A stretch of DNA of 63,298 bases, filler included, from Neolecta irregularis DAH-3 (lineage: Eukaryota): NCBI GenBank assembly GCA_001929475.1. It is 5 parts of 5 records of this genome, joined end to end, with 100 filler letters (N's around TTAATTAATTAA, not from the genome) between each part and the next. Parts side by side here need not be neighbours in the genome. Positions count along the whole stretch, not along the records: positions 1 to 21,504 come from LXFE01004026.1; positions 21,605 to 34,368 come from LXFE01004028.1; positions 34,469 to 39,588 come from LXFE01004029.1; positions 39,689 to 61,952 come from LXFE01000511.1; 1 more part is not named here. One strand, 5' to 3'. Position numbers and translations under genes: made by a program. Position 1 is the first letter of the stretch; every line of letters starts with the position of its first letter. Of this stretch, positions 19,718-57,278 are shown piece after piece. Below the pieces are notes generated by a model. It had not been told where the DNA came from, made no database searches, and was given only the letters and a program-made list of their open reading frames with translations.

Positions 19718-21102
19718 ATGCTCGAAAATCATATTCCAATTCAGCAAAATGCACATTGGTCATCTTGACTCGTTACTAATTCGTAGGCATGGGTTGCTAC
19801 TGAACCTGGACATGTAGAGCTCCACAGAATTGATGTCCCTGTACCCAAATCAAATGAAGTTCTTATCAAACTCGAATACACCGGAGTATGTCATTCTGGT
19901 ATGTGCGTTTCTTTCCCTTACTATTTATCCTTGAAGATGTGCATCTCATTGGATCTCACTGGCCACTTGAAACGACATTTCCTACAGTCTGCGGCCACGA
20001 AGGTATTTAGACATTTCGATAGTATTTGAAATGGCTAGGTGCAGGAGTTGTCGCTGTTATTGGAAATGGTGTTACACATCTCAAGATTGGCGATAGAGTT
20101 GGCATAAAGTGGCTCAATTCGTATTATGTTCTTTTTTGAATGTCTCTAATCTATCTTCAGTGCATGTGGAAGGTGTGAATACTGTCTTCAAACCTATGAA
20201 GGGCAATGTCCAGATGCAAAATTCACGGGATTTTCTCTTAATGGAACATTCCAGGAATATGCAATCGGGAATGTGAGGTTTATGTGCCTCCATGAACATT
20301 GACAGTTAGGCCGAATATGTTGCTCAAATTCCTGAAAATGTGCCATTAGCCGCTGCGTAAGGTAGCACTCTTTTTCCTTATCCTGACTGAAAGGACCGCA
20401 GTACTCTGTGCTGGTGTCACGGTTTACAAAGGAATTAAAGAAGCCAACCCTGGTGCAGGTACAACCCCATCAATTGCCTTTATTCAACATAAAAGGTCAA
20501 TGGATTGCGATATTAGGTGCTGCCGGGGGTCTCGGTCATCTTGCTATTCAATATGCCAAGGCATGCGGTCTTCAAGTTCTTGCAATTGATACTGGAGAGA
20601 GCGCAGATAAAGTATATGGTCTTTGCAACTACTATGTTTATTTCTAGCTTTGCATAAACCTTGGGGCAGATCAATTTATCAATTATAAAACATCAATTGA
20701 TGTTGCAGTTGATGTCAAAGGAATCACAAAAGGCGGTGCTCATATAGTACTTGTTGTTGCATCTGGAAACGCATATACACAAGCAATTTCTTTTCTCCGA
20801 CCTAAAGGAGTTCTCATTGCTCTTGGACTGGCCCCAAATACCATAATCGAGAGTGATTTGTTTTGGCATGTTCTGAATGGTTACACTATCAAAGGGTGAG
20901 CCGAAACATGAAATCTTTAGGCTGATATTATAGCTCTTTAACGGGCAACAGGAAAGACACCGACGAAGCTCTTGCTTTTGTTGCTCGTGGGATTGTTAAA
21001 GTTTCTTATAACATTCTTCCGTTTTCATCGCTTCCTAAAGTCCTTGATGATCTCAAACAGTCAAAAGTTGTTGGTCGTGTTGTATTGGATATTTCCAAGT
21101 AA
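19718..21102 (+). CDS. Zinc-dependent alcohol dehydrogenase (ADH1-like MDR family)
   Basis: [21 protein letters not shown]-x2-C-x2-C-x7-C structural Zn site, [32 protein letters not shown]; about nine short introns, so the ORF track largely misses it. Confidence 0.92.
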
Positions 21103-21208
21103 GCGTTGAAAAGATAGTGATACTGAATATCGCTTAATGTAACTAGCTGTTCCTGTAGTGAATCAAGAGACTAGGTGCAATTTAAGTCCCTTTTTACTGA
21201 GTCTTCCA

Positions 21209-21314
21209 CAGACTTGCTAACAAGCAAGTAAGTCCAAGTCTGGACTTCGGACTTGCTTGCTTGCATATTTCAGGCCTTTGGACTTGCTTGCTTGGACTTG
21301 CTTGCTATTTTACT
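21209..21314. mobile_element. Possible DNA-transposon/MITE end with subterminal repeats
   Basis: Repeated GGACTTGCTTGC motifs in direct and inverted (GCAAGTAAGTCC) orientation next to a gap. Confidence 0.4.
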
Positions 21315-21504: not shown

Positions 21505-21604
21505 NNNNNNNNNNNNNNNNNNNNNNNNNNNNNNNNNNNNNNNNNNNNTTAATTAATTAANNNNNNNNNNNNNNNNNNNNNNNNNNNNNNNNNNNNNNNN
21601 NNNN
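21505..21604. other. Artificial contig spacer (N-TTAATTAATTAA-N); also at 34369-34468, 39589-39688, 61953-62052
   Basis: Identical 100-bp spacer carrying stop codons in all frames. Confidence 0.97.
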
Positions 21605-22890
21605 GAAGACATGATGGTAAGATAGATCTTTCTGCGAAGTTCGACAATATTGGTGTTAGTTTGATCTATAATCTCCATTTTTTTAGTTTCTTCAGTGACT
21701 TCGTCTTCTCCGTCACTGCTGTCTTCCTCGGATCCAGATTCTTCGCTTCCCTCGCCAAGTATCTCTGCTCGAATTTGCTCATATCGCTCTTCATTCTTTT
21801 CCCATTCCTCATCAAATTTGAACACGCCGAGACCTTCCTGGACATCAAGGGTATCGTCCAGACTGATCATGTGCGTAATCTGATCCTCTTCTGCAACTAA
21901 ATCCAACTCCGAAGGAATCGCCAAGTTATCTTTATATTTATCTTTCCGAACTTGAAACAAAACTTCGATCATGTATTGAACTCGTTTATCGATCATTCCT
22001 TCATGTAAAATTGCTCTGAATCGTTCGAATACGCCATTGTTGGCCTTTGGCGATACCTCACTGAGAAACTGCCCGACTTCACGGGTAAATCCTACTGCGA
22101 CTTCAACAGAGTCATCTGAGGGGCGTTCAAGAAGGAGGGAAAGAAGTTGAAGGGCTACGATTTCGTGGGCTACGAGATGATTTACCAAATGAGCAATAAA
22201 CATTGTACTGGACAGACAAACAGCCTAGATATTAACGAGTCATCCAAGAAACTACAAGTACCTTGTCATTTCGACGAAAAGCTTTTCGAAATTGGACGAT
22301 TAGACGAGTGAGAAGGAGTTCTCCTACTTGTGGGAGTTTTGTGTTTATAATTGCAGTCATTGCGGCATAGATAGATGTAAATGGTGTTGAAGCGGCCTGG
22401 GCTTTCATAATACTACGGCAATATAATCCTCGTCCTCGTACCAAATTTTCGGTGAATATTTCGGGTATGATAAGTTTCAAATTCGAGATATTGACCTGGC
22501 TGTTAGCCTGGAATGACAAGGAATGATGCCTTGTTGATCAGACCATTGATACTTTTCTTCAACGCTTCCCAATACATTCGCTGATACTCTTTGGTATTCT
22601 TATCTGTAAACTGGGCCTGCAGTGCTCGTAGCTTTGCGGGCGGAACATATGTGCCTCCAGCCCTTGTATTCAGCAGCCTGGCTTATTAGTCGTGTGCAGA
22701 CAAGACGTGGATGCTTTTCAAACTCTGCTTTCAGATCAAACGGCGGCTTCTCTGCTGGCTGGTGTTCGTCTGCACGGTCGAACCGCCGCTTGGATGCTGT
22801 AGGCGGCGACGGGCTCTTTGAAGGAGAACGCTTGCGCGGAAATGGCAGACCGTCGCGCCGCTGGATGGTGCTGTGAACAACCGCCTGCAT
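21605..22890 (-). CDS. CWC22: Pre-mRNA splicing factor Cwc22 (3' truncated by contig end)
   Basis: [97 protein letters not shown]. Confidence 0.95.
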
Positions 22891-23626
22891 GGGATGGAAG
22901 CGCAGAAAGGGTTGGTCTCCTTGGTGTTGTTGCGATAACACTCACCACCAAAAAACAAATCCTGGCTACTATCGATATTGCACTGAAACATCGACTCCTA
23001 GATCTGGATTCCCGGCTCCGCGAGTCCGAGAGATCCCGCGAATGGTGGAAGCGGCGGGTGCAGACTCTCGACCAGCGCTGCCGCACACAGGACGCCGAGA
23101 TCCGCAGGCTGAAGGAACGCTTGTTCAGGTATGAGATCGTGCAGGAAAATAGCAGTTGAATAGAAGCGTTGAAGCGAAAACAACTATTCTGCTTGCTGCG
23201 CAACGGGACTTGATGGCGCGCAATTGCACTTTGGAAACAAGCATCCTTGATCATTCAACAGTTCATTCCCAGCCCGCAATCACCTCGCCGGCCTCACAGT
23301 CTCCGCCAAAGAAACGGCCAAAGATACAGCCTTCTCCTCCACGGAAACGCCATCGCAAAACACAAACGGTAGCATGCGAGACCACTGCTGCACTCAGTGC
23401 CCTCATCACCACCTTGTGGAATATCGAATTGATCCACCCCGACATTCATCTGAGAAGATTGCTGCTTGCTACCGGTGATGTAACTATACCACCTAATCCA
23501 TATGTTTCAAAAGAACAAAGGAAAGAACTACTAGTCAAGAAGGTCGAGGAACAAATTGAGAATGTACGATATCTAAGAATGCAAAACGAATTTTTGGGTG
23601 AGTTGGTTGGATCAAGAGAGGATTGA
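22842..23626 (+). CDS. Hypothetical coiled-coil protein (start uncertain)
   Basis: Heptad-like ORF 22818-23128 joined by a GTATGA...TAG intron to the 23156-23626 ORF, which has an NLS-like PPKKRPK. Confidence 0.5.
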
Positions 23627-34180: not shown

Positions 34181-34468
34181 NNNNNNNNNNTAGCCCATAC
34201 AATTAAATGGCAACCCCGATTTTACAGAACGCTATTGATCATGTTCCAAAAAACCGAGAGAACTTCACTTAAAAAACAAAGAGGCCTTAGGCTGTTCAAA
34301 ATGGCTTGTAGTCTCCGATTCTATGTTGTAATGACACATCTTTGTTTCCAGATCATGGAAGACTAGACNNNNNNNNNNNNNNNNNNNNNNNNNNNNNNNN
34401 NNNNNNNNNNNNTTAATTAATTAANNNNNNNNNNNNNNNNNNNNNNNNNNNNNNNNNNNNNNNNNNNN

Positions 34469-35990: not shown

Positions 35991-38478
35991 TATCACTCCA
36001 TTGGCATACTCAATTTCAATATCCCCCAGATCCCTTATATCTTCCAATATCGAATCCACAAGATCTGACGTCACTTTAACCCAACAAACCACATACCTTT
36101 AACACAACTTCCTTTCTTCCCCTTGCATAACCCCATAAATTCCTTCTTGAGAACCCCTGCCCGCCTAAAATCGTGAAAATCTAAATCTTGACCAAATTTA
36201 CCATAAATCAAGCTTGTTACATTTAGCAAGTGTTTCCCAAGGAACATCAGACAGCGTCGTCGCGCCACAATTAGCGACACTAGCTCGTCTAGCTACACAT
36301 TACAAAAACGTGGACTTGCATGTTTAGCAGGTTAATTTTATCACCCAATAACATCGCGGTATTCGGATTCTTTGTCTCGGCCCGCAAAAGAGGCTTTCCG
36401 CTGACAAGGGATTGCTAAATACCATTGGCTCAGAAACGTCGATCAGCATACCAGTATTCTAGACCGCTGATGGTGGGTCCGGCCTTCCATGTTCTTCCAC
36501 TTGAATGCACATTGCAACTTGCTCCGCTTCCCGCCCATCCGCTCACTCACAACGTTCCACGGTATGTCAAGAACACTGTACGTTTGAAGCAAGTCCGCCA
36601 CAATCCCAGACAGTTGTTGCAACTCCCCGCCAGTCCATGCACCCATCTTTTGAGTACCGCGGTGCTTGACATAGTTTCGGTACCGGTCTCTGACATCTTC
36701 AGACCGTCGATCAATCTCAACTCCAATAAGCCGCCACCTTCTTCCGTGCTCCATAACAAGCCTAGACACATCACGACAATATACTAATCCCTTACTGCTC
36801 AAGCTGATCATCTTCCTCACGAGTCCACACAGCAGTCTTTCGATGCGGATGGTAATTGCGTCGTATAAACGCCCTCAACCGCGGTTTCGCTCTCAGAGGC
36901 AGCCGCTCCGCTAAAATCAACCACATACACCCCCAGACATACACAATTCGCCCAGAAATGCTCGACAAAGTCGACGATTCATGCCATACATCATCTCCAC
37001 AAATTGGTCCCGGTTCATTCCATGTTGCTGCCATTAAAAACGCAAGTAACCACATATACCAGCTCCCAGTCTTGAATACACCGCTCAACTATCGCCCGCT
37101 CTTCTTTGTTATACTGGCCTTCATAGTACCCGCCCACCTTCACTCTCCCATCATTACCCGCTTCCCCGGAAAAAAGCGAATACGCACGTAACCGGACTCC
37201 ATTCGCAGGTCGATTCAATCGAGTTCCTTCGCATTAGTCTCAAATCGCACCATAGAAACCTATAGATCGAAGCAGGTCCAGTGTATCCCCCGTAACCAGA
37301 AATTTTAAAAGGTCTTCTCCACAGTCGTGCTGTTTCATGTATTTTTTAAACGAGGATACGATTTCGTCGTCTTCCTTTTCAAGGTACCGCCTATTCAACG
37401 TTTTCGTAGGATTGAAAGAGGTGCCAACTCGATTATCCGGAATTTCAGTAGTTTCGTCAAGTTTAGCCTTTTTTCGAGGTCGTTGGTCTTGTTTATCGCG
37501 AGATTCAGAATCGGATATACTACCGCTTTTATCCGATGTATCAATGTAGAGATCGGTTTTGTCAGATGTAATATCGAGATCGGTTTTGTCAGATGTAATG
37601 TCGAGATCGGTTTTGTCAGATGTATCAAGACCTTGTAATGGTGACGATTGCTGTAATGTAAGTTGAGGTCTCAGCTTTTGTCTAGAGATTGAATTTTGCC
37701 CTATTGGATTGGCTTGTCCGGAATTGGCTTGTATTGGAGTATTGGCAGATGAATCGATTTGATCAATCTCTTCTTGATTAAAATGTTGACCCGGTGTGAC
37801 AGCCCATGGCGTCTTGGTTAGCGAATGCTTCTGGGTTCCCAGAGGTATAACCGGCGACGTAGAAGATTCGATCTCAGGATATTCCTCGATAACCAACTTT
37901 GATAAAACTTTATCTGGCGTCTTATATTTCACAGTCTTCATCCGTGCCGAATTCTTAGGACCGATGACCCCTGTCTTTCTGATCCTTTGATCGTTCGGAT
38001 GTGCTATCCTCGTAGGTGTGGGAAAAACATCCTGGTCAGACATGCCATTGTCCCGTTCTCCGTGTTGTTCCAGCTTGTCCTCCCGTTCTCTGTATTGTTT
38101 NNNNNNNNNNTCTGTCTTTCTGATCCTTTGATCGTTCGGATGTGCTATCCTCGTAGGTGTAGGAAAAACATCCTCGTCAGACATGCCATTGTCCCGTTCT
38201 CCGTGTTGTTCCAGCTTGTCCTCCCGTTCTCTGTATTGTTTTGGTTGTACTTGTTCAACTTCCAGTACCTGGGAATCCGGTATAACCTCTTTTTGTCCCC
38301 TGTCCCTCTTTTTACGTCTCTTCTTCAATTTACGATCGGCCAGCCCATCTTCCTCTCGTTTACGGGGCTTGCTGTTTGATAAATCTTTCTCCATACCCGC
38401 CTTTTTTTTGGACGATTTTTTATGGTTGTGCTTCTTCTTACGAGAAGAGCTGAATTCTTTTGATATCACTCCATTCAT
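35943..38478 (-). CDS. Myb/SANT DNA-binding protein, Reb1/Nsi1/TTF1-like
   Basis: Basic low-complexity N-terminal exon, then Myb repeats WTREEDDQL..GRRWRLIG..DRRSEDVRDRYRNY..GAWTGGE..IPWNVVSERMGGKRSKLQCAFKW. The 3' end is inferred from manual splicing. Confidence 0.8.
37549..37625 (-). repeat. 27-bp coding tandem repeat (TSDKTDLDI x3)
   Basis: GAGATCGGTTTTGTCAGATGTA occurs three times. Confidence 0.9.
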
Positions 38479-40714: not shown

Positions 40715-40728
40715 GGAGGTTGCTGGTG

Positions 40729-40808: not shown

Positions 40809-40825
40809 ACTATTAATAATAATCT

Positions 40826-42791
40826 CTATGCCCCTGTTGCCCACCCTGCGTCGTCGCTCGCTGTCCGCCGCCGCACCCGGAAAAACTCCAGCCCGCTCTC
40901 CACAGAATTCCAGAGCCGCTCCGCAGACTCAGACAGCCGCTGGCCCACAGTCGCGTCCCCCGCCCCCGCGCTGCTCTCCTCCACTTCTTCCCGCGCCAAA
41001 CACCGCCCTGCGAGCATCCCGCTCTCGTCCCACCCCCCTGTCAGTGCTGCCGCGTTACTCATCGTCGCCCAGCCACATACCGCGCTCTATCAACGCCCTC
41101 CCCTCAAAAGCCCCCTCCGCCGCATCCTCCTCGTCAACCCACTGGCTCAACCCAAACATCGTTTTCGCTCGGTCATAAAGATTCAACAACGTCGCTAGCA
41201 CGGGAACCAATATCGCAAGCGGGAACCAGCTATTCAACCCAGCCCCCAGAGCCGTCAGGTTGACGCTAGATCCAAAAAACTTCTCAAACACACTGCTAGA
41301 CCCCGGCGCAAGAAGCGTGTTGTAATTATAGCTTAGAGGGAACCTGCCCCATCAGCCCCATCCACAAACAAGTCTTCACGTCAACCGGCACAGGTACGAT
41401 GCAAAGAAAATCAGTGATGGGGGGTCCGTGTGGTGATTCGGAACTAGTGCAAACAGGTTGAACACTTGCAGCCTGAGCAGTGTCGTATAAGTGCACACGG
41501 CCATATACGTCAGGATTGCAACCGAGATCAGCTATTTTGTTCAGCAGAGGATCTCGACAAAAGTACCTCCACAAGCGCCCATTTTGGGCCCGCCCCACGA
41601 ACAACGATCCCCACAATGCTGATCAAAGGGTGCTTGGCATTGATAAAGATTTCAGAAAAGACAATAATGGCAGATAACATCCCTAGAAGCACTGCGGTGA
41701 CGCGTTTGGCTAAAGGAACCACATTAACGTAAAAGTGATATGCAGCACGAGGCGAAAATAGCCCACTTCTCGCAGTGTTAAATCGTATCACCAATTCGCC
41801 CTTGGATGATGTTCCCGCGTCCATCACATCCTGAATAAATGTAGCTACACGGATCAACGACCCCCATTCACTGCCCGTCAAATTCATTTCCATATAAAAT
41901 ACATACCTAGTGTACCGTTCCTTCTTCCGAGCAGCAGACCTGACCCTCCTTGTTAAACTCGCAAGATATTCATCATCCACTCGGTCGAGCGGTATCGGGC
42001 TTCGATTGGACCCCCGATGCTCTTGTGCCGATGGACACATTGCAATCAATTCCTTCACCCAGGCTTTGTGTTCACCAAACACTTTATGTTCCAAAGCAGA
42101 AACCTCTGCCCCGACTTCAGCTAGTGTCTCTGAGGCTTCTTCCTTGGCATCCCAGACTATAACAGCACGACGTTCTAGGTCCCGTAACTGATACTGCCGC
42201 GAAGCGGAATACCACAGCCTTCGTGGGATATTGACGAGACCGTGGCCCATCAGCATGATTACAATGACCAGACCCCATGAATTGGCTAGTGCAATGATCG
42301 TTGATTTGATTGCAGCTCTACCACTTTAAAATAGATCGAGCAACAGCATACGCCGATGAAACCTTGGTAGATGCCAGTATGTAGACAAGAACCGAACTCG
42401 AAATCACAAGGCCAATGATCTGGTTACGAAGATTGGTGAGGAGCGCGCTCTTGAGACGTTTCCAGGGAGCCCGATGACCACTGTCGACATAATTCTGCAT
42501 GTTTGGAAACACAAACCAAGTGAAAACAGCACAAGTCCACCAGGTCGTTCGCCAAACGACGACAAGCACATTCTCGGGAATGAAAAAAAGGGGCCGTTGG
42601 TTCTTGGTGCTAGAAGTTGATGCGAGATCGAATGGAAAAAGTAACACCACGGAGAACGGAATAAACCATCCTATAAACACAGCTGCAGGGACATACGCCG
42701 GTAAACTGCGCGGCCGAGAGTAGAATGAAAGCAGACCTGCCACAAGACAGCCCACCAATGCAAAGGCAAATACAGTCGGCAGCCAGACCAT
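40826..42791 (-). CDS. LMBR1-like multi-pass membrane protein (LMBRD2-like)
   Basis: VFIGWFIPFSVVLLFPFDLAS, TWFVFP.MQNYVDSG, ALANSWGL..MLMGHGLVNIPRRLW, FNSWFP-like C-terminal motif and TLLNLYDR. Confidence 0.88.
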
Positions 42792-43008
42792 CGAGTTGCG
42801 GGGATCAACTTGCCGGTGTCGTAATCTCCGATAAGCCCCAGAACATGATTCATCATACCATAAAATAATACATAGAATGTGACTACTTTGATAGTATAAA
42901 AGCTTTCAAGCACTTGTGCTTCATAAAAATGTGACGGTGGATGTGGGATTGGTCTCACTTGTTCTCGGATTGACATCAAACTCTTTCATAAACATCAAAT
43001 ATACACTT

Positions 43009-43456
43009 ATGGGCGGTGCCGAAGTACCTTCATGGAGTATGTTCTTCTCTCTTGCACAAGTCATCTAACCAACAGTGGTCTTGTAATCTTCCTTGTCTGT
43101 TCTAATTCGTCCAGGGCTGGTGGGGCAGTTTTAAAGGCCGTAAACAGAGTTTGTACTAGTTTCACTGCCCTCACTGACTGCTTCAGGGGGAATTACTACC
43201 TACACTTTGTCTCCCTTTGCTGCTCGTCCGTTTGCAGGAGCTCTTCACGCCGCCATTTTCAATACCGCCCGGCGAACCAGAGGACAGCTCTTCTACGTTG
43301 CACCGCCATTTATCGCAGGCTATTTTGTCTGGGACTGGGCCAAGAAAAGGTTGAATTTAATTAATCCCTCGGATTCTCATCTTTAGAAATGCGTACTTGA
43401 ATTCCAAAGCTGGACATCAAGAGGCACAAGCACAAGAAGAAGCTTTACGAGGTTAG
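43009..43456 (+). CDS. QCR8: Cytochrome bc1 complex subunit 8
   Basis: Spliced product MGG...MGWWGSFKGRKQRGITTYTLSPFAARPFAGALHAAIFNTARRTRGQLFYVAPPF...NAYLNSKAG. Not in the ORF track. Confidence 0.9.
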
Positions 43457-43657
43457 AATATATGCACATCTTCTTTTTGCCTGTGCGTCTTGCAATGCGA
43501 GCCCGAGTCGAGTATCTATGCTATTCTATACCTAAAAGTAGGCACAATTGTATCTAGTAAGCTTTTAACGCATCCATATGCTCTTTCATGTATCCCACTT
43601 TGTTTTCGTCCATGGCTTATATCGGCGTGACCAATCTCCGCCGTAGCAAGGTTATCA

Positions 43658-45644
43658 ATGAACATCGACATTCGAGCAGCCCAAGCGGATGTCCTTCCAA
43701 ACCCTACTCGTTTACCAAGAGTAGATATGAAATCTGATCCTTTGTCAGAGCGCAGCTGTGACTATGTTTCTGCGAAACCATTAAAGGTAAAATTACTGAT
43801 TCGCGGATTAACAACTCCGAGATCCAGCCTGTGCAGATACATACACATGGCCAATCATTTTTGGGAAGTCTGAAAATGACTCCAAATCATCTCATATTTC
43901 AATCGACTGCACGCGATCTGTGGTATCCATATCCGATCGTGAATACTGTGGAAAGGCGGATACCGTCGGCAGATGGCTCTCAGAGTGCTCTCAGATTTCG
44001 GAATAGAGATTTTAGCTCTATAACGCTTTTCTTTTCGTCAAGGTCCGATTGTGATTATGTATTTGAGCATATCATGGGTCACACTTGTATCAGTATGTTC
44101 CTGAAGATTATAGGTTAATATCAAGCATCCGTTCTCTGTTTATATGCATTTTCTTACAAGCCTGGCCTCTTGGAGTCCTCGCTTAATTCGTGGTCCCTGT
44201 ATGACCCTCGGAAAGAGTTTATACGTCTCGGTGTGAATACGAGAACAAAAGAATGGAGATTTACAAATGTGAATATGAATTTCGAGGTATCCCCAGATCA
44301 TATCAACGGCCTCACGCCTAGAGATGCCCAACCTATCCAGAGCTACTTGTTGTTCCTTCCAAGATCAGTGACAATACTCTGAATTATGGTTACAAATATC
44401 GATCAAAGGGTCGAATTCCTGCACTGACATATATACACACATTGAACAATGTATCAAATCTTCTAGTCGTCAGATTACTGAATCACAGTGTACAATAACT
44501 CGATCGTCTCAACCCTTGGTGGGGATAAAGCAGAACAGATCAATTCAAGACGAGAAGCTGCTGGAAGCTATCTTTGCTACAACACATCCAGATGGCGTAT
44601 ATGGTTCGCAAGCTAACAACCTCATTATCGATGCTAGGCCAACCAAGAATGCCTTCGCCAATGTAGCTATCGGAGCCGGCACAGAGGATATGAATAATTA
44701 CAAGAACGCACATAAAGCATACCTTGGCATTGACAATATTCATGTTATGAGAGATTCACTCGCAAAAGTTGTCGAAGGTTCAACCAATATCTTGTCATAT
44801 ATGCTAATTTAATAGCCATCAAGGATTCTGATCTCGTTCCCCTCCCTCCAAACCGTGAATTGCTAGCCAAATCTGGTTGGTTGAAGCATATTTCAGCAAT
44901 CATTGATGGCTCTCTTCTTATCACCAGGACGATTCACATCCAACATTCTTCAGTCCTAGTACATTGTTCTGATGGTTGGTCCGTCTTCTGTACCGATGAT
45001 ATGCAAGCTGACATGCTAGGGATCGTACTAGTCAGTTATCGGCTATTTCACAACTATGTCTCGATCCGTATTATCGGACCGTGGAAGGATTTATGATCCT
45101 CGTGGAAAAGGATTGGATGTCTTTTGGTCATCGATTTGCAGATAGATGTGATCATCTTACATCAGAAAAGGCCTTCTACACTACCGATGGTGGAAATTCA
45201 ACTCTTGCCTCGATGATAATCAAACCGTTTTTTGGGACCAAAGAAAGCTCACCCGTGTTTCACCAATTCCTAGATTGTACCGAGCAAATTCGCCAACAGT
45301 TTCCAAATCGATTCGAATTCAATGGGCGGTTTCTGAAGCGTATTTTATATCACTTGTATTCTTGCCAATACGGCAATTTTATATCAAACAGCGAGAAACA
45401 GCGATGCGAACATCGCGTTAGAGAAAACACAAGGTCTTTGTGGGATTATTTCCTGACTAGAAGATCTGATTTTGTTAACGAGTGTTATAATCCTGCTTTA
45501 GATCTTCCCGGGGATACAGTTCTTTTGCCTGACCCAAAACATGTGCAGTGGTGGTCAGATGTATTCGGAAGAACAGACGAAGAAATGAATTCTGGCCTTT
45601 CAAAAGGTGAAATCCTAGGGGTCGGTGTTGACTTTATTAAATAG
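43658..45644 (+). CDS. Myotubularin phosphoinositide 3-phosphatase (Ymr1-like)
   Basis: CPTYP, RSKGRIPAL, RSSQP.VG, IIDARP, GIDNIHVMRDSL, catalytic VHCSDGW|DRT, EKDW.SFGHRF, SPVFHQFLDC. Confidence 0.93.
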
Positions 45645-46291
45645 CAATTATGAAAACCGGTATATCTACTGATTGGTGCGTTCTCCTAGAATCCTTTAAA
45701 ACTCCTTCATAATTAACCAAAACATATTTATGATCGGATATTCTATATGAAATTGTCAAAGGGCCCTGGCGGCTCATCCGAGTTGCCGTGATTCACGATT
45801 TTGATGGATACTGGGATAGGGATGAAAACAAGCCACATTATCTGTAAGATATATCATCAAATATGGTGTAAGGTTTGATTCGTATCAATCTACAAGGTTT
45901 TGGGTACCGAGGATATTGACCTGAACCGCATCTATCCCATTTGTACCAGGTCCTCATCACACATATTATATATCTGACTCGTGGGGCAGCTCAGTCGTTG
46001 ACTAGAACGAAGAGGGCATGGTAGAGCCATACTTGTTGTTCGTTAGACCATGGGTTCTAATGTTATCAAATATTTTCTCGGTTTCGACGGGAAATTTCCA
46101 AAGTCTCGGGACAAGCTTCTGCCAGAGTAAATGTGGTTAATAATTATGCAACCTATGAAAATGTCTTGCGACGAGAGTATGCTACATCATGTATGGCATA
46201 CCCTATGAAACCTTCTTGAACCTTCAAGAAACCAAAAGAATAAACTTCACACCTGACTGCCTTGAAGAAGAACGAATGTTCATCTCCACAG

Positions 46292-47044
46292 TTAAAAACA
46301 TACACACGTTCTGTTTCGCTTTCCAACAGGATCCACATAGCCCTCTCCAATCAAAACCCAAAGCCCAAGAATGAGAACGGTACGGACAAATTTTGTCTTT
46401 GTGATTTCTGCATCCTGTGAAGAAATACTTGCTAGGACATCTTGAAAGTCGGAGGAAAAGATAATAGCATTCTTTGTAATGCGAGCAAGGGGTTTGGCCT
46501 CAAGACTGAACGGTACCGGGGTTGAGAGCATGACAAATCTCCATTCAAAGCTCCCAGCTTCATCTGAAGATTTTCTGCGCTTGTATCTGGTCCAGCGACA
46601 AATGAACTGGAAATGATTTCGTACGGATGTGAATTCATAGTTCTTCCTGTTCTTGTCGCTGAGATTCGAGATAACAGAGAACATCATATCTTCTACCGAA
46701 ATATGCTCCTTTCCATTCTTCACTCTGAACGCTGCGAGCTTCTGCTCACTGTTCGAATCTACAACCAAGGCGATAGTTTTCCGATGACGACATGCAAAGT
46801 GACTAGGTAGTTCTAGGTTTAATGCAGGGGATGCGTGGTTCGGTGTTGGTGAACTGAGGAGTTGGAGTTGCAATAGCAATAAGGGTGACTTTCCGTAGAA
46901 CAAAAACGTTCGAGTAGGAGGATAAGCGATAAGATACGTCATTCGCTTCCGCGAAATCGACGTTGAGCCCACCAACGGAGAGGGAGATATCGAGTTACGA
47001 TCAGGAGAAGCCGATGACTCTGGATTTGAACCACCCTCAGACAT
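46292..47044 (-). CDS. Hypothetical protein
   Basis: 250-aa ORF with natural composition; family not recognised; the 3' end may splice further. Confidence 0.55.
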   Translation of the reverse strand: MSEGGSNPESSASPDRNSISPSPLVGSTSISRKRMTYLIAYPPTRTFLFYGKSPLLLLQLQLLSSPTPNHASPALNLELPSHFACRHRKTIALVVDSNSEQKLAAFRVKNGKEHISVEDMMFSVISNLSDKNRKNYEFTSVRNHFQFICRWTRYKRRKSSDEAGSFEWRFVMLSTPVPFSLEAKPLARITKNAIIFSSDFQDVLASISSQDAEITKTKFVRTVLILGLWVLIGEGYVDPVGKRNRTCVCF

Positions 47045-47420
47045 TTTGACCAGGGAGACGCTGTGAGATGTGTCTTAGCTGATGATGACGATTGCGTGTG
47101 AAAACCAGTCCAAGGCTATGGCACAGCAGAATTGTATTTTTAGTAGGGCAGGGGGATGGAGGCCAATGATATATGCGCGACAGACGGTTGACCGGAACAA
47201 GGTCCGGTTGTGATTGGCTAGTGGTGTGGGGAAGGTAGCGGCTATACCTAATCACCGAGTTATCTCCACGGTGCCGGGTAAATACTTTGCGCGACGCAAG
47301 GTGTTGTCGGACGATACGGAATTAAAAACCAGAGATTCCACCCCTTCAGCGGCATATGGAAAACGTCATATGAAGGTAGGTTTTCGAGTCGATGTCGATA
47401 CTATCTAGATCGGCGATAGC

Positions 47421-47753
47421 TGTGGGCACACACCGTTACCCCACCATCGCAACTCCCACCAGCTTGCCACCGCCACCGCCTAATCATCGGACGGAGCAGA
47501 GAGCAGCAAGGGCCGCAGCTCATCCCAGTCGGGCCAGTCACAAGCATCGCCACCCAGCAAAGCAGTAGAAAAGGCCGGCAGGCAGATGACGGCAGCAGCC
47601 CGTGTGGCGAATCTGTATATAAGTAGCTCCTAGCCGGACTAGCTGGTCGCTAGGCTTTCATCTGATATTCAATTTACTCTTACTCATAGTATCTACGTCG
47701 GCATATCCAATCCAAGTCCACATCGGCACCCAACCCCAGGTCGTGTGCTGACA
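47421..47753 (+). mobile_element. Solo LTR, family B
   Basis: TGTGGGCACA...GTGCTGACA; flanks ATAGC/ATTGC form a 5-bp duplication with one mismatch; internal TATATAA. Confidence 0.88.
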
Positions 47754-47943
47754 ATTGCTCGTTTCTTCGGTGATTAGACCGTCATGTAGAAGAAGCTATC
47801 CATCTTCCTATTGTCAAATAAACCACTATACAAGAGCTTTAATACTTTCAAGTATGTTTTCATGAGTCGATGAGAAAGGGTGATGTTTGGGGTGTCGGTT
47901 CGTACGCCGCCGAGCTTAATCCTGCTTTACTCCTGATCTCACC

Positions 47944-48517
47944 ATGTCCGACGGTAGCTTCCGTAAAATTGATATTGATGCTTTTGGTGACGACCATGTA
48001 ACCGAGGAAGAATTATATCCGCCAGATCTACCCTCATCAGATGATGTTTACGCGGATGTACAAGGCAGGACCGAACAGGTTCGAAGCCTATTGAGAAGGT
48101 CTGCACTCGCAATCTCTCATGGCTAACTCAAAGGGGCGATGTTCATTCTGCTCTCCCTTTGGTTCTCGCAAACCCTCCTTATGGTGTTAGAAATGAGAGC
48201 GCCAAGGTCTTTTAAGTGACTTCTTCTTTTGCTGATGTCAGTAGGAGATTCATTCCCATACGGTTATGGAGGTTCTAAGTTCAATCAAAGCATCAGAGAT
48301 CACTATCTTGCTGAAACAACTTTCACCAGATGACAATGACGTTCTTATGAAGTATTTATACAAGGGGATGGCCAGTCCGGAGACATACAACATGGCTGTT
48401 TTGTTGAATTGGCATGAAAAGGTACAATTTACTCTTAGCATGCATAACTAATGAAAGCTCGTTGAAGTAGCAGGTAATGGTGCAATTGTCCGCGCGATTA
48501 GTGGATATACAGTTTAA
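47944..48517 (+). CDS. ARC15: Arp2/3 complex subunit ARPC5/Arc15
   Basis: FRKIDIDAF, PPYG, VMEVLSSIKASEI, DVLMKYLYKGM, AVLLNWHEK|LVEVAG.GAIVRA. Confidence 0.92.
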
Positions 48518-48543
48518 CTCGTGCTATGCATGAATGACATATT

Positions 48544-49227
48544 TTATTCCTCGGCGCTGCATGTCGTCCTGAACTGTTCATCTACTTTATCTAAAAGACT
48601 TTGCGTCCACTTGACTGCATTTCTCCGCTTCTGACGTGCTTCGGATGCATCCTCCAGGTCCTGCGGTATATCTATAGCATCTAGGTCGAGCAGTCTTTGT
48701 AAGAGTAACTCTCCTAGACGGGCATGAATTTCCTTGTTCTTAACGGGATCTCTTGTTCAACACCAAGAAAAAGAAACTAGAGGTACCGGTAGGGGTGGAT
48801 TTAAGGTAGCCGTCAACTTGCGGGCATAGTTCAATATTTGTGCGATCTATTGATGCTTGGATGATATCAAGGAATGACTTTTTCAAGTACTGAGGAGGCT
48901 GAGCCTGGTATTATCAGCTATGAATGTCTGGGGGTGTGTCCTTGCATTATCTCGAAAGTCCTCCATAACTAGAACTTGAGCCCCGCTTCTGATGCCATAC
49001 TCTGCAAGGGGTTTGTCGTCGTTTGCTAATTCGACACCGGCAAAGTAGTACCGCAGTTTCGGTGTTCCTATGCGACGAGAACAGTGCGACTTGAGTTCCT
49101 CCAAAGTCGCGCGTTTGGCTGAGATGGCATTTTTTTCAAAGGTTACAGGGAACTTTTCCGTTCCGTACCAGATAGTCAAGGAGTCGGTCGACGTCTTGGA
49201 CGACACGACAGAGCGAAACCAGTCCAT
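48544..49227 (-). CDS. BAG-family co-chaperone (ubiquitin-like plus BAG domain)
   Basis: UBL region (FAGVELANDDKPLAEYGIRSGAQVLVM), then BAG helix LGELLLQRLLDLDAID...ARQKRRNAVKWTQSLLDKVD. Confidence 0.8.
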
Positions 49228-49431
49228 TGCTGGCTGACACGAGCGTGTAGGGAGAGGTTCGACTATGAATAGACTGCGGGTTGAGCGCTCTGGGGATAAA
49301 TACATGGTTTAGTGCGCGCGTATCCTGTATGCATTATGTATGCGTTGTATATGCGTTTTGCAGTTGCTCGCACCGGCCGGTCTGCATTCAGGCTGGGCCT
49401 ATGCGACTCGCCTCGTCCAGCAGCCGCAGTC

Positions 49432-50831
49432 ATGGCCACCGCGTCTCGCCGATTACACCACGCTGACTCGGCCCTCTTCCGCCAATTCCCAGACGGCTTC
49501 GAAATCATACTGGGCCGCAATGTATGTCTGCCTCTAGCTCCTGCCCATTGATTTACCCAGGGCCACGATGCTGTCTACGGCCTTACTCCCGGAATTCCTC
49601 CCGCCTTCCGCAAACGCGATCTCATCCCCCAAACCCCTGCCAAAGCCGCATTTCCCAACAACATCAACAGCAGCAGCAGCAACATTGATATCAAAAATAG
49701 CAACATCGACATCATCAGCAACAACAGCAACATTGATAGTGATATAAACGGTATCCAGGTCCCCGACTATCCTCTTGCAACTCCTTCCATCATCCTTCCA
49801 CAGATAGCGGGCTTCTCACCCAGCCTAGTCTATGGACACTCCCCTTCTCCAGCTGGCACTGGTCTCGACTCCGCAATTGACAGTCCCAACTCTTCACTTC
49901 CTGAGCAATCCTATTCTTATACGTCAATTGCCTCCAACTACAGCCTCCAGGCTGCTTCCAATGGCTCACCCCAAAAAATCCGAAGTGTATCCTCCAGCTC
50001 TCGCATACCTGTCTCTCGAGCATCCCCCATTCCCATTCCCGTAAAAATGCTGAACCGAACAATACCCTTGCATTTGACAGAGAAAGATAGCGTTGTCAAT
50101 GACATGCAACCGACCACAAGTCATGACAGACAATCGTCTACTAGCAGGCGACGGTCAGAGCCCGATCTGCATGTACAAGAGACCATTCCGATGATGAGAA
50201 CAGTTGTCAGTCAAAGTCAGACCCGAGGTCGCCCGCGGCCACCGTCACCATCCACAGCCTGTAAGCTATCTCGTCGCATATCAAAGTCTATACCTTCGTT
50301 TTCACCTCGCAGGCCAAAAACTCCCACCGGCCCTCCACCTTGGCTTATTCCACAGCACTCACCACAATCACACCTCCCTCCCAACCAGCAGATTGTACCT
50401 ACCGTTGCCCGCAGGCTCGAGGCGACGCGGATTGCTCAAATGTCGGAGGATGATCCAACCTTGGTACGGATCTGGGATCGATGCATGAATCCTATGGTTG
50501 TGCAGCACTGTATTCCTCAACCGCAGTCAAAGCCTTCCACTCGGCCTCTGTCGAAAGAGACACAAAATCAAATCCTCGAAAAGCTGGTCTCTAGAGAACA
50601 AGTCTCTGCAACATCTATTGCTGTGCATATTCTCTAATCCCTACAGTGCTGATGTTACAGAATGAATTTCTTCCAACCTTTTCTGGATCAGCGTCTGCGA
50701 TGCCACCACAAAACACCATTGATGAAACAGGAACAGTCATGTTGAATCATAAGAGAAAGACGTTTATCAGTCCCACAGATGATATGGGAGTCAGAGGAAC
50801 GCCGAGCCCTTGCTGTTGTGTGATCTCATAG
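49432..50831 (+). CDS. Hypothetical low-complexity protein ending in a CaaX-like motif
   Basis: Chain of Pro/Ser-rich ORFs linked by short introns; the last exon ends PCCCVIS-stop. Confidence 0.5.
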
Positions 50832-51002
50832 GTCAATGGAAGGTGTTTCTCACAAAATATAACGCGGGGGCGACGCTGGACATATGGTTTGCACCGAACT
50901 GCATTCATACATGTGCTGTAGGACTATCTTGATTTGTTCACATGGAATATCTACATTTGCTTCATTGACTTTCTTCAAGGCGTTGAGGGCACTGGTTTTA
51001 TG

Positions 51003-51952
51003 TTAGGCATGTTGGTTTTCGTCTAATTCTTCTACCTTTCGTTTGCTAGTATACTGTAAGGAAGGTTTTTCTAGCATACTTACCTTTGGTTTTTAATCAA
51101 TCCACGGATAGTGAGATCATATACTACTAGAGCTTCTCAGGGCGATAGCTCTAGGGCACATACCTTCTTCAACCTTCTTTACATCATATTTAATTGAATC
51201 AAACCGCCGACGAAGCGAATCATTCTTCAAGTTGAGTAAGGAGAACGCAGAATGCAGTTCTTTTACAAAGGTACTGATTTTGAGGGGCTTTTTGAAATCT
51301 TGCATGGTCACCGAGTTAACTGCGAGGCGGGACTGACTGTCAGCAGTGGACGAGACGAGGCGATGCCAATTCGTTGATCAGTGAAATGATAGCGTGAAGA
51401 TAATCCTCGACGCTTAAATGAAATTTGTCATCCTCGACGACGTCTGAAGGGACTAACTTGGAAAGGATCAAGGGATAGACATGGAGCGGCATACCTCCGA
51501 GTTCGCGACTCACTTGGTCCAAAGTTGCCAGTGCTTCATTCTCAAGATAAAACATCAGGATGACTGCGAAGGAAGCCTGTTGAATAGCGCGATTCCATGT
51601 GTCATAGTATCGATAATAAGGATAGCTTGCGGCAATATTTTCAAGTTCTTTAATCCTAGATTTCTGCTCGCAGAAAAGAGGATGGCTAAGGACACTCAAT
51701 TCGGGAACTGAGATCAGCGGCTTCATTTATAATTTCGTGCAGTTAGGTGTGGAGTGAGCCTGTGCCAGAACTGAAAGGATAGAACGAGTGTCGCGATCCA
51801 GAGCCGTAACAGCCTTACGAAGATCCTAATAAAAGTGAGCTGCTTAACCCCTATAGGCTTACCTCACGGGCTTGCAAATCCAAGTCGATATCCTGCTGGA
51901 CCTTTTGAAAGATCTGGGGGTCGATGATAGGAGCAGAAGATATACTGGTCAT
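51003..51952 (-). CDS. TSN: Translin
   Basis: YYRYYDTW, FHLSVEDYL.AIISLINEL|SRLAVNSVT..D, LNLKNDSLRRRFDSIKYDVKKVEE..YDLTIRGL. The exact 3' end is uncertain. Confidence 0.92.
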
Positions 51953-52545
51953 GTCTGTAAAAGAAAATGGTAACGGGACTAGCACAAACCATCAAATTCA
52001 CCCTCCCAAGCTAGAAAAATACACCCAGAAATACCCGCCTAGCTTTAATTCTAATGCACAATGATACCTCCAACAAGAAGGCAGTTTCAACCCTCATGTA
52101 AAATATCTATCATGATGAATGTATTTGCCGAGATTTTTGTCCATTGCATCGATCCCCTCTTTCCACAACCTCAAGGGCCAGGCTTAACTCACACTTGAAT
52201 GGAAGAACAAAGGAATTGCGTGCACCGGGCTGTCAACGTTCCGATAATAATAAAGGAAAAAAATTCATTTCATAATTCTAAAATCGACTTGTTGACAGCC
52301 GATTTCCCAAGAATTTTGGGATCTTTCAATTCTCCTCAAAGTACAATATCGAAAGAGGTATATGTCACAATCGCAGTCGTTTGCTTGAGAGGAATTGCCC
52401 ATAAGGACATGGTTATCGCAATGTAAATATCATTCAACTAGTATGTACCTTGCACAGGAGATGTCACCAAAGAGTACGATCGTTCGTTTACATGAAAGAG
52501 AAGCTGAACGAACACTGACGAAAATATGTAGACTAAAGAAAAGTG

Positions 52546-54159
52546 TTACTTTTTGCCTGATGCTTTTTGAGCAGATTTGGTAACCTTCCCAGCAACTTTA
52601 TCTGCTTTGACAACCGACTTGACGACACCGACAGCAACAGTCTGTGTGGGTTAACGAGCGGCAAACATGCAAGGATATATACTTGTCTCATATCCCGGAC
52701 AGCAAATCGACCAAGAGGAGGATAGTCCGTGAACGCTTCACAACACATCGGCTTGGAGGGAACAAGCTTGGCAATGCATGCCTCTGTAGTCTTGACAGAC
52801 AGAGGCTTTATTTCGAGTATTTTTCCACTTCGTCGATCGATCTTCTCAATGAGCTCGGCGAATTTGCAAGCAATGTGGCAGGTATGGCAGTCGAGAACTG
52901 GCGCATACCCGACACTAATTTGACCTGGGTGATTGAGAATAATGACTTGGGCATTGAAAGATTCAACTGACTTGGGTGGATCGATCTTGGCCTCTCCGCA
53001 AACATATCCACGTCGAAGATCCTGTACTGCAACGTTCTTAATGTTAAATCCAACGTTGTCGCCTGGTACGGCTTTAGCAAGTTGCTCATGGTGCATTTCT
53101 ACTGATTTGACTTCAGTGGTGATGCCAGATGGTGCAAAAGTGACAATCATACCGGCGCTGATACAACCACTTAAAAAATCAATCAAGTCTGACAGAGAAA
53201 AGTTACGATTCGACTCTGCCGACGGGAACAGTTCCAATACCACCAATCTTGTACACGTCTTGAAGAGGCAATCGAAGAGGTTTTTCGACAGCTCGAATGG
53301 GTACTTCAAAAGCATCGATGGCATCGATAAGAGTCATGCCGGTGATTGTATTACCACTCGAGGTTTCCTTTTTCCAGCCAGTGTACCAAGGCATGTTTTT
53401 TGAAGGCTGTACCATGTTGTCACCCTGCCATCCCGAAATAGGGACAAAACAGACTTTTTTAATTGGATATCCGACTGACTGGATCAGTGACAAGAAAAGA
53501 TAATTGTTGTACCCTTCTTGACGAAGTGGCCGGTTTCTTTCACGATTTCTTCGAAACGAGCTTCAGAATAATTGACACTATCCATCTTGTTGACAGCAAC
53601 AATGAGTTGTTTAACCCCAAGAGTGTAAGCAAGAAGAATATGCTCTTTGGTTTGTCCATTTTCAGCAAGACCGGCTTCGAAGCCGCCAACAGATGCATCA
53701 ACTATGAGGATAGCCGCATCGGCTTGCGATGTTCCTGTGGTATGTCAGACAGAAGGACTTATTTCCTGATACCAGTAATCATGTTCTTGATGAAATCTCG
53801 ATGACCTGGAGCATCGATGACAGTTACAACGCACTTTGGGGTTTCGAATTTCCACAGAGCAATATCGATAGTGATACCACGTTCTCGTTCCGCCTTGAGT
53901 TTGTCAAGAACCCAGGCATACCTGGTTGGTAAGAACACTTGATATAAGGCAAAATATACTTGAAAGAACCCTTTCCAAGATCATTAGCTTCCTTCTCAAA
54001 TTTCTCAATGACTCGCTTGTCGACACCACCACATTGCTGTCTTTTAGAGTACCGAAAACTGTGGGGACACACATAGATTAAATTCCCAGTTGATGTCGAT
54101 TTCCCTGAATCGACATGACCGATTACTACAATGTTGATGTGAATTTTTTCTTTACCCAT
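52546..54159 (-). CDS. Divergent elongation factor 1-alpha paralog (intact)
   Basis: Full spliced ORF with [63 protein letters not shown]; same six coding-intron positions as the 59995 gene. Confidence 0.92.
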
Positions 54160-54397
54160 GGCAGAAAGTCGATATCTAGGACAGTATAAGCAAGAGCGGA
54201 ACGCTATGTTTTGCGGTGTTGCAGACAAGAGAAAAGAATGAGCAGTCACAAGAGGATTTATAGTGCATTGCCATAGCCGGACACGACAAAACAGGGACGT
54301 ACTAGCACTAGACTCAACAGAAACAGGTTCCAGGGTGCTCTGCCCTTTCAAACAGTGCCTATCAACTCCTTGCAGCACCAGAAGCCCATCACATACA

Positions 54398-57278
54398 TCA
54401 ACCCAGTAGAGTCTTTGGAAATCCGGCAAAATCAATCTGTTCACTGACATCACCAATGGCATCTTTAAAGTACGTGATTTTCAGGCGTAACCGTATGTTT
54501 GCCTGCTATATCAGCTAAAAGTCGACAATCGGAATCGGTTACCCCCAGACCAGCCGTAATTCGCATCACTTGATTGGCCTCCTCTCCCCCTTTTAAAGTC
54601 GGAGCTGATATAGGTTGTAATTGAAGTTTTTGAGTTTTCGGAACCGCGGCTTGGAGACTGATCTTATCGATCGACGCAATGGGATCCTCATTCCGAAACC
54701 GAGCAGTGATGTCGACCACTCCGGGTGAATAAGAGTCACCTCGAACCGGTTGCAGGGTAATCTTGAACCCATTCTTGTGATACACAGTAAATTCCTCTAC
54801 CCAATTAAATTCATTCCGAGACTGATATTACGGTAATTTGAACTGGAAGGGATTGCCCGTGATTGATCGGGTGAAAATGAAGCTCTAGGTGATCCATTAC
54901 CATTACCGAAGAGCGCCATGATATCACCACTCTTGCTAGACTTTGAAGCATTATGTTGTCCAGAGTCTCCGAAAATATCGGACAGTAAATCCGCATTCGC
55001 ATGGCTATCGGCCGGTTTCGAATATGTAACATCGTTTATACCCATAAGATCAAGCAAAAGCTATCGAAATTAGACAATCAAGGAGGGGGATGTGCATACA
55101 TCTTGACCGGCATTACTTTTTCTCAATTGTCCTCTAGTTTTCTTCGCCTGTGTACGGATTGCCGGACCAAGGACGCGACTGTCTTCATGGATTTCCGGAG
55201 GAGGCATGCGCTCTAAAACACCGGTCCGTATACTATCGTGATCGAAAAGTTTACCGTATTCGACAGATCTTTGTTGGATTTCTATGTCAATACTGGTAGC
55301 GTAACGAGAAACGATTTCCCTAATTCGATTGATCAAAGACTTAGTGGTTATACGAGCAGTGAATTTCATCAAAGCTGTAATTGCGTACTCCGAAACCGCC
55401 TGCGTTGCATAGTTTCCTGAAAGTATGGTCTCGAGGAGATCCACGACCTCGGATGGCTGCACCTCCGAGTTCAGCCGCAGTAGAAAATGATTAGTTGAAC
55501 ATACTTGATTAGCAGGCTCTCCTTCGTCAAATTGTCCTTCCTGTAACAAGAAATCCCCAAATTCGCCGATGATCCAAGTTGCCGCAAGTGTTAGCCCTTC
55601 CTGAGTAACATCCTCTTTAACAGCAGAGAAAAGCTTGTGAACAGCATAACTTTGGAGTTCTGGAGCAGTTCCAATAAGTCGCAGAAAGCTTGACAAAATC
55701 TGTTCTTTGACATAATTACCGGCCTGGCAGATCAAGTCACTATGAACCTGAGGGGATTACCAATTTGAGAACCCGCAGTACAGTATCCACGTGCCACCGT
55801 TTGTTCGGTGCAAATCGGTCAGCAGCAATGCAAATTTGTGTTGTCATAGTAGGTTTGAACTCATTGTTGGCAACTTCAAGGAAAGCTAGCAACTCTCGTA
55901 TTAAAACCCGAACATTACTCTCGTTGATCAGAGCGAAAGATAAATCCAAAGCCCTTCGACGAATTGAGATATCGGGATCACGTAAACATTCCAAAATTGT
56001 GTTCCGATGACGTTGGACGGCCGTTGGTTCAATTGTTATTACTTTGCTGAGAGTGTTGAGCGCAACATATCTAATGATAAGAGTAAATTTGACAGTTGAG
56101 GATATGCCTAATATTGTTGTCACGATTGGCGAGGAATTTTCCTAGAATATTCACACCAAGAACGCGCAGACCGCTATCTGCTTCAATATCCAGTATTGTT
56201 AAAACAGTCTCATATAGAATAGAATTTCCAACATTTTTAGAAGCGTCAGTATTAGAAGCGACCTGAAGTAAGAGGTCAGTTCGTGAATTGATGCACCTGA
56301 GCCAATATGTCATTCATTTGCTCACTGACATCGGGATCTCCAGCACCCAGTACTCGTAGAAATCCCAAAATTTTCACTTGTAGGAATGGGTCTGAAATGC
56401 CTGTAACATCGTGCTCGGGTGAATAACCAGAGCTCGAGAGCTGCTTTAGCAGTTTGACTAGAGTCATTGTTTGCTACAACATCAGAGAGAAGTATATCAT
56501 CAATGTAAAACACACATCCTTGTACTGATCAATGACTTCAGAGTCGTTCAAACATATGTCAGTCGCTAGTGTGATTCCACAAGCCAAAACCCCATGATCC
56601 CGATCTGATAAGAGCTGCTTCGACTTTACAAGGAAGATGTCTTGCAAATCGGGCACTTTCCGTATGATCCGCATTGCACATAAAGCCGCCTTTACATATC
56701 AATATCCTTAAGCCAGAAGATTCGTTGGCTCTACCTTCCTGCGAATGTACGCGCTTGAGGACAACAGCCGAACTACTTCCTGACATAAATCACGAGCCAT
56801 TTCAGCAGACGAAATATTCGCCAAAGTGCATAATGCCAGTCCTACTACGTACATGTTCGCATGATTGAGATCGCTAGTGGTTGAGCACGATTACGAGAAC
56901 AAAGACCCAGTTACTTCTTTAAAGAATTGGTGACTAGAGTGAGAACTTCCTGGTTTTCATCGAGAAGCAACATAGTTCCGAGATAACCCAATCGTTTATC
57001 CGCGAATCTGGGACTAGCGAGTAGCTTGAGACATTCTATCTGGCCAAAGTGCGTACGCTCTCCTAGGGTAAAGAGATATAATAGTTTGGCGACGTTGTTG
57101 CGACGGTAGCTGGAATCGGACGACTCCTCGCGCAGTGATGCGCGAATTGCAGCAGACTCCTTTTGGACGACAGCACGTTCATCGGCAGCAGTCTACGCCG
57201 CAATCAGCGCTTTTGGTGGGGCAGAAGCAGCACCTTCGCAGCACGGACTTGTTTAATAAAAGCCTTGAGCGAACTCAT
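54398..57278 (-). CDS. APL4: AP-1 adaptor complex gamma subunit
   Basis: [77 protein letters not shown]-terminal ear domain LQAAVPK. Confidence 0.96.

Follow-up and report, generated by a model that had tools for sequence, protein, structure and literature searches.

Short GC-AG introns with degenerate donors in a window of the Neolecta irregularis genome

Can introns that begin with GC be removed in Neolecta irregularis without the strong donor context that usually accompanies such a start, and if so, is an unusual splicing system needed for it? The question is raised by a stretch of 63,298 nucleotides (nt), filler included, from the draft genome of strain DAH-3 (NCBI GenBank assembly GCA_001929475.1), which is called the window below. 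A preliminary description of this stretch, made from the sequence alone, had pointed to five places where conserved protein sequence is restored only by an intron with a GC donor. It had considered these donors weak, and it had suggested that the donor may be picked mainly by its distance from the 3′ signals, or by an altered U1 or U6. Judging from sequence and homology, it is quite probable that the five stretches are genuine U2-type GC-AG introns, that they are removed exactly at the borders given below, and that they belong to the dominant intron class of the species, in which GC donors would have accumulated under a degenerate donor. The introns and their genes are as follows (a slash before GC marks the border between exon and intron).

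21605..22941, minus strand: CWC22 gene, truncated by the contig end; aligned with 5 full-length homologues
22678..22714, minus strand: first GC-AG intron of CWC22, 37 nt, aaa/GCATCC...GACTAATAAGCCAG, ACTAAT box 8 nt from the AG
22496..22529, minus strand: second GC-AG intron of CWC22, 34 nt, aag/GCATCA...GCTAACAGCCAG, GCTAAC box
51333..51366, minus strand: GC-AG intron of translin, 34 nt, ttg/GCATCG...CTGACAGTCAG, CTGAC box
19751..19786, plus strand: first intron of the zinc alcohol dehydrogenase (ADH) gene, GC-AG, 36 nt, aat/GCACAT...TTACTAATTCGTAG, TACTAAT box
54398..57278, minus strand: AP-1 gamma gene, 11 introns of 34-45 nt, 10 of them GT-AG and one GC-AG (from mapping of the public protein P0121 and junction-wise alignment of homologues)
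56071..56107, minus strand: GC-AG intron of AP-1 gamma, 37 nt, tag/GCATAT...TTTACTCTTATCATTAG

At all five positions the sequence reads GC...AG as described, and the introns are short (34-37 nt), which had also been claimed. For the junction tests, flanking exons were searched separately against Pfam and PDB, and the spliced products were aligned to homologues. The Pfam or PDB coordinates, taken exon by exon, are contiguous at four of the five introns, and the spliced products align without gaps across all five junctions. The protein is therefore restored in every case, with a continuous conserved frame after removal of the intron. These results establish both the borders of the introns and the continuity of the proteins.

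The part of CWC22 present in the window has three introns, of which the third is GT-AG (22225-22261). Across the first, the spliced product is gap-free against 40 of 40 full-length CWC22 homologues in a scripted alignment. Two stop codons in a row (TAA TAA) close the frame of the downstream exon four codons ahead of its first residue, so that an acceptor must lie there. A PDB search with the exon upstream of this intron gave no match. The exons flanking the second intron cover residues 85-133 and 134-216 of S. pombe cwf22 (9esh_c), which are contiguous to the residue. A search for a protein identical to the CWC22 of the window among proteins of 154-2000 residues returned a best match of only 81% identity. 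CWC22 is itself a splicing factor, and it has two GC-AG introns among its first three.

In translin, the upstream exon stops at position 137 of the Pfam Translin profile and the downstream exon begins at 138. A search for a longer transcript-derived protein identical to the translin of the window found none. In ADH, no ATG is present in exon 2, and the TAG of the acceptor itself closes the exon's frame. PDB alignments put the first residue of exon 2 at position 12 of yeast-type ADH, and exon 1 supplies 11 codons, as needed. When exons 1 and 2 are joined, 43 columns align gap-free with a representative ADH (P0294), and the conserved I-P-x-x-Q-x-A-W spacing crosses the junction. The only competing model, a 'CA' donor at 19745, 6 nt upstream, does not fit the spacing of this conserved N-terminal motif and was rejected. 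Against none of the 6 homologues does it score better than the GC model, and against 3 of the 6 it scores strictly worse. Two further introns of the window are free of in-frame stops and could be read through, namely 51453-51494 (minus strand, translin, 42 nt) and 15033-15068 (minus strand, aspartic protease, 36 nt). In both, the exon-wise Pfam coordinates are contiguous only after removal.

For the AP-1 gamma gene, a public gene model is available for comparison. The closest database protein to its exon is the 'AP-1 complex subunit gamma-1' of N. irregularis DAH-3 itself, a public genomic model 99% identical to it and the only near-identical protein found. With the GC intron removed, the product is gap-free against seven of seven fungal homologues and nearly identical to them there. 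The Pfam Adaptin_N coordinates agree: they run to 281 in the upstream exon and resume at 283 in the downstream one, with a split codon in between. The public model takes another intron at this place:

56108..56156, minus strand: false GT-AG intron of the public AP-1 gamma model, its AG directly before the GC donor

When the GC intron is swapped for this GT-AG intron, the public protein P0121 is reproduced exactly. By doing so the public model drops 15 residues conserved in all seven fungal homologues, and it translates the GC intron as coding sequence, with mismatches and a 4-residue gap against the same seven. By comparison with these homologues, the public AP-1 gamma model is mis-drawn, the GC intron having been bypassed by a false GT-AG intron. 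Elsewhere in the gene, the last intron (54503-54542, minus strand) has two acceptors 3 nt apart (TATAG/CAG/), of which the public model uses the first and our gene finder, introduced below, the second.

Two sequencing runs, X1 and X2, were compared with positions 39689-59688. Neither is on record as RNA, and X2 is labelled 'DNA?'. X1 may be the source of the assembly. The preliminary description had named reads with GT at these positions as one of the outcomes that would overturn it. An independent re-assembly of X1 gives the same bases as the assembly, with 0 other letters, at both of the two sites covered, translin (record 5, depth 494) and AP-1 gamma (record 7, depth 446). Contigs of X2 skip 12 short stretches of 34-45 nt within the same 20 kb, all of them GT..AG on the coding strand, which X1 never does. 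This suggests that X2 is transcript-derived. In the part of normal composition, 10 introns are confirmed in this way at the RNA level, with the donors GTATGT, GTGAAG, GTACTT, GTATGT, GTATGC, GTTTGT, GTATTA, GTCTGC, GTCTTT and GTATAT. Since introns starting with GTACTT, GTATTA and GTCTTT are spliced in X2, both the short size class and its degenerate donors are seen in RNA.

These 10 introns and 33 others, supported by Pfam coordinates, homologue alignments or positions shared between EF-1 alpha genes, make up a reference set of 43 GT-AG introns. Their length is 34-45 nt in 42 of 43 cases, and 88 nt in the remaining one. In 37 of the 43 the branch A is 7-10 nt away from the 3′ end; the full range is 5-15 nt. 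The donor is hardly constrained beyond its first two bases. The counts are A at -2 in 27, G at -1 in 23, A at +3 in 31, T at +4 in 24 (T or C in 33), G at +5 in 18 and T at +6 in 24, and the total information outside +1/+2 is about 2.0 bits, to which position +5 contributes 0.09. The degeneracy of the donor is thus established for the GT-AG introns themselves. GC-AG introns are described as typically having a compensating AG/GCAAGT context (PMC3167603). As the preliminary description had claimed, such compensation is missing here: G at +5 is found in none of the five GC introns, and only 3-5 of the 7 flanking positions match. Counted against the flanks of (C/A)AG/GT(A/G)(A/T)GT, the five have 4, 5, 3, 5 and 4 matches, and the reference set has a mean of 4.4 out of 7. 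The description of these GC donors as weak was therefore correct as to their context, but the weakness is not special to them, the 43 GT introns being equally degenerate. The GCAY donor is the normal GTAY donor of the species with C at +2 and does not form a separate weak class.

The other signals point in the same direction. When length, donor context, branch box and acceptor are scored together without +1/+2, the GC introns fall at the 76th-100th percentile of the leave-one-out scores of the GT introns. These signals may, if anything, be above average, which five cases cannot prove. The branch boxes are ACTAAT, GCTAAC, CTGAC and TACTAAT, 7-8 nt before the AG, and a weaker TTTAC in AP-1 gamma. 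Their predicted, motif-based scores as U2-type yTrAy boxes lie at the 34th-95th percentile of those of the GT introns. The spacing is narrow as well, with GC donors 26-29 nt upstream of the predicted branch A and the donors of the reference set at 25-33 nt in 40 of 43 introns. No GT at any of the five GC sites could give an intron of 30-45 nt with the same acceptor; the nearby GTs would give introns of 19-29 or 46-64 nt, most of which break the frame. A distance-based choice of the donor, as had been proposed, agrees with this spacing and with the lack of a competing GT in range, although such agreement does not demonstrate it.

Three of the donors read GCATC, which recalls the minor-intron donor consensus /RTATCC (quoted in a passage of PMC3033335). 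The U12-type reading was rejected. The donors GCATCC, GCATCA, GCATCG, GCATAT and GCACAT do not fit /RTATCCTT, and the ATATCC that occurs in the AP-1 gamma intron is shifted by 2 nt from the position of a U12 donor. The TCCTTAAC box, the U12 branch sequence expected 10-15 nt from the 3′ end, was not found near any of the five 3′ ends. Unlike those of U12-type introns, the branch boxes here are CTAAC, CTAAT or CTGAC, 7-8 nt from the 3′ end, and the length and the other signals match those of the main intron class.

Two additional stretches may also be GC-AG introns. The first had been mentioned as a possibility in the preliminary description; the second was absent from its list.

36280..36319, minus strand: candidate GC-AG intron in the Reb1-like Myb gene, 40 nt, GCAAGT donor; could not be verified
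48905..48945, minus strand: additional candidate GC-AG intron in the gene for a ubiquitin-like plus BAG protein, 41 nt, GCAAGG donor, GCTGAT box; not verified

The Myb gene matches S. pombe Reb1 (5eyb_A, E = 1.6e-12). Removal of the first candidate keeps the frame open and gives plausible repeat-like sequence. Its branch-box score is only at the 9th percentile, and a PDB search with the two short flanking exons gave no match. Around the second candidate, the Pfam ubiquitin and BAG domains sit in the flanking open reading frames. No in-phase GT occurs past the end of the ubiquitin-like domain, and the sole in-phase GT upstream cuts into the domain. Past the domain, the GC at 48945 is the only in-phase donor starting with G, short of a GA. 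Its GCTGAT branch box is good and its signal score is 5.8; the gene finder chose instead an 'AC' start 6 nt downstream.

How common are such introns here? In the sections concerned, Frey and Pucker (2020, PMC7072748) give a mean of 1.009% GC-AG introns for fungi, and U2-type GC-AG introns make up about 1% of introns in fungi, animals and plants. The census of the window was made with a custom dynamic-programming gene finder and gives a rough denominator. Its score joins codon log-odds to an intron model for which the 43 GT introns served as the training set; each of the 15 non-GT donors incurs the same flat penalty. Earlier versions, which over- or under-predicted and recovered 3 of 12 RNA junctions, were discarded. 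The final output has 33 genes and 135 introns, of which 108 are not readable through, and 106 of these score at least -5. Unaided, the gene finder settles on the GC donor in AP-1 gamma and in both CWC22 introns, and also, at a poor score of -3.7, in the Myb candidate. Four of its in-frame introns (55886-55918, 56142-56171, 51174-51204 and 56519-56557) are false by Pfam. Relative to 106-135 introns, the five verified GC introns correspond to a share of 3.7-4.7%, and the two candidates raise it to 5.2-6.6%. With the fungal mean as the true share, at least five GC introns would be expected with P = 0.004-0.012; for five to seven GC introns and a share of 1%, P = 0.0001-0.012, for this window only.

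Several observations weigh against the interpretation given above, or limit it. The share was calculated over introns predicted by a home-made and noisy gene finder, which recovered 41 of the 48 supported introns and made false in-frame calls. The proportion among the supported introns (5 of 48) is biased, since GC introns were deliberately selected for verification. A sample of five cannot reveal whether GC introns differ from GT introns, and the absence of G at +5 from all five has a probability of P = 0.07 by chance. The reference set is unevenly firm: for a few of its introns the main support is the logic of the reading frame, and Pfam gave no match for some EF-1 alpha exons taken by themselves. 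The read check covers two of the five GC sites. Among the X2 joints listed (15 of 55), none falls at 51333-51366 or 56071-56107, which says nothing either way. When introns are counted by signals alone at a threshold of 4.5, GT gives 38 and GC 9, the latter within the range of 1-10 of the other dinucleotides. Similarly, a count of candidates bridging open reading frames, made per donor dinucleotide, showed no enrichment, not even of GT, and is uninformative. Since signal counts do not separate GC from the background, the case rests on homology and not on signal statistics.

Comparison with known systems may provide some clues regarding the nature of these introns. They resemble ordinary U2-type GC-AG introns in having GC at +1/+2, a 3′ AG, a U2-type branch box and the size class of the host's GT-AG introns. 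They differ in their share of about 4-7% in the Neolecta window and in the AG/GCAAGT context, which none of the five has. High shares have been reported in algae: Iwata and Gotoh (2011, PMC3033335) give 39.6% for Aureococcus anophagefferens, 22.2% for Micromonas pusilla and 7.7% for Chlorella sp. in the part concerned. In that part, the GC-AG-rich algal genomes have 66-70% G+C, to which the authors tie the rise of GC-AG introns. Raised numbers of GC donors are common to both cases, the rise being lineage-wide in the algae, whereas the Neolecta figure comes from one window. Neolecta introns are far shorter, and the Neolecta pieces of the window have 41-47% G+C; therefore, the algal G+C explanation does not apply here. 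Relaxed +2 donors (GA and GG), flanked by conserved AG and A, are described in sections of PMC5714493 and PMC7072748 for Eurytemora affinis and Oikopleura dioica. In these animals, as in Neolecta, a T at +2 is not obligatory, which has led gene models astray; the variant tested in Neolecta is GC, in a weak context. A full-text literature search found no paper on GC-AG introns in Neolecta, and the papers returned for Neolecta with 'splice site' were off topic by title. The main text of the Neolecta genome paper (PMC5309816) contains no occurrence of intron, splice, RNA-seq or transcriptom.

How could GC donors have accumulated? Neolecta would have a single dominant intron class of 34-45 nt, with a yTrAy box 7-9 nt from the YAG end and a donor of approximately G, T or C, A, Y. 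Positions +4 to +6 and the exon end would be nearly uninformative in all introns, so that a change from T to C at +2 would be cheap and would need no compensating consensus. As the donor context is barely informative in any intron, this change may cost little, and GC donors could thus reach several times the usual fungal share. The site would be chosen by its fit to G-Y-A-Y about 25-33 nt upstream of the branch point, possibly with the whole tiny intron being recognised, and a change in U1 or U6 would not be needed. A variant regime of a known intron class, with relaxed and spacing-dependent donor choice, fits the data.

A bolder version of this reading is that the 5′ splice site is read as little more than G-Y-A-Y by a molecular ruler set about 25-33 nt upstream of the branch point, so that T and C at +2 are nearly interchangeable. 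This would be a lineage-wide loosening, brought about by a change in the U1 snRNP (small nuclear ribonucleoprotein), U6 or Prp8, or by whole-intron recognition. We consider this version tentative, and on balance doubtful.

Still less probable, and in our view rather unlikely, is a Neolecta spliceosome so altered (in the U1 5′ end, the U6 ACAGAGA box, U1C, Luc7 or Prp8) that +2 is no longer read as U. The unusually information-poor donor, with its 2.0 bits outside GT, and a GC share several times the fungal mean are what such an alteration might produce. However, the U1 5′ end was reported unchanged in Aureococcus and Micromonas pusilla, the two species examined in the section of PMC3033335 concerned, with GC-AG shares of 39.6% and 22.2%, which argues against the need for an altered U1 or U6. 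Moreover, about 95% of the introns here begin with GT, and +2 is therefore still read.

A regulatory role appears slightly less likely again. GC sites would then be deliberately weak, holding expression down or allowing regulation, for example self-regulation of CWC22. In favour of this, CWC22 has GC donors in two of its three introns present in the window, and animal GC donors have been tied to regulated splicing (PMC2490688, in the part concerned). The remaining three GC introns, on the other hand, are in unrelated housekeeping genes, and the signals of the GC introns other than +2 exceed the GT median, contrary to what deliberate weakness would suggest. Finally, it is very improbable that splicing really uses GT-AG introns close by, of the kind that the public AP-1 gamma model has at 56108-56156, or that the C at +2 arose by faulty sequencing or assembly. 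The public model is contradicted by homology, losing conserved residues and adding unrelated ones against all seven homologues, and GT alternatives at the other sites break the frame or remove or add residues within conserved blocks. The re-assembly, at a depth of 446-494, agrees with the assembly at both sites covered, and five like errors at exactly +2 are not credible.

If the five introns are what we take them to be, GC-AG introns in a degenerate donor regime, some consequences follow for work on this species. Gene finders restricted to GT-AG mis-draw Neolecta genes, and comparative studies based on such models inherit the errors. With its moderate G+C, introns of about 37 nt, donors of about 2 bits and a several-fold greater share of GC, Neolecta offers a natural case for studying how a 5′ end can be found with little U1/U6 pairing. 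It is also a GC-AG-rich case outside the G+C explanation offered for the algae.

The window itself consists of five draft contigs joined by linkers of the form N44-TTAATTAATTAA-N44 at 21505-21604, 34369-34468, 39589-39688 and 61953-62052, and it contains further gaps of 10 N. The genes identified by Pfam on open frames represent an ordinary fungal set:

SUR7, MBOAT, a WD40 protein, Bmt2 and an aspartic protease
zinc ADH, CWC22, 6-phosphogluconolactonase, an LYR protein and a Zn2Cys6 factor
RPS13, a Reb1-like Myb protein, LMBR1, QCR8 and myotubularin
ARPC5, a ubiquitin-like plus BAG protein, translin, two EF-1 alpha paralogues, AP-1 gamma and Tra1

An Rfam scan of the window gave 0 matches, and hence no small nuclear RNA; no tRNA was found either.

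Some minor features of the window may also be mentioned. The contig ends at 39689-40764, 34469-35831 and 61650-61952 are very G+C-rich, unlike the rest. The first of these is a protein-kinase fragment; there the depth of the X1 contig is 110, and only 9 nt are shared with the following contig, whose depth is 467. X2 transcripts span this head and splice two introns in it (45 and 40 nt). The head may be a mis-join, or it may derive from a different organism present in the sample. The two EF-1 alpha paralogues (52549-54339, minus strand, and 59995-61604, plus strand) are inverted, with about 5.7 kb between them. Their intron positions are identical, at least one pair of introns is still similar in sequence (53922-53959 and 60195-60233), and X1 contigs cross-map between both copies. 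At 47490-47760, the summed depth of X1 contigs reaches about 5800, with many variant letters, loose ends and a skip of 105-113 nt in both runs; this is probably a dispersed repeat. Simple tandem repeats resembling CTGATTGA and CTGACTGA occur at 35780-35900, on either side of the 10-N gap at 35832-35841.

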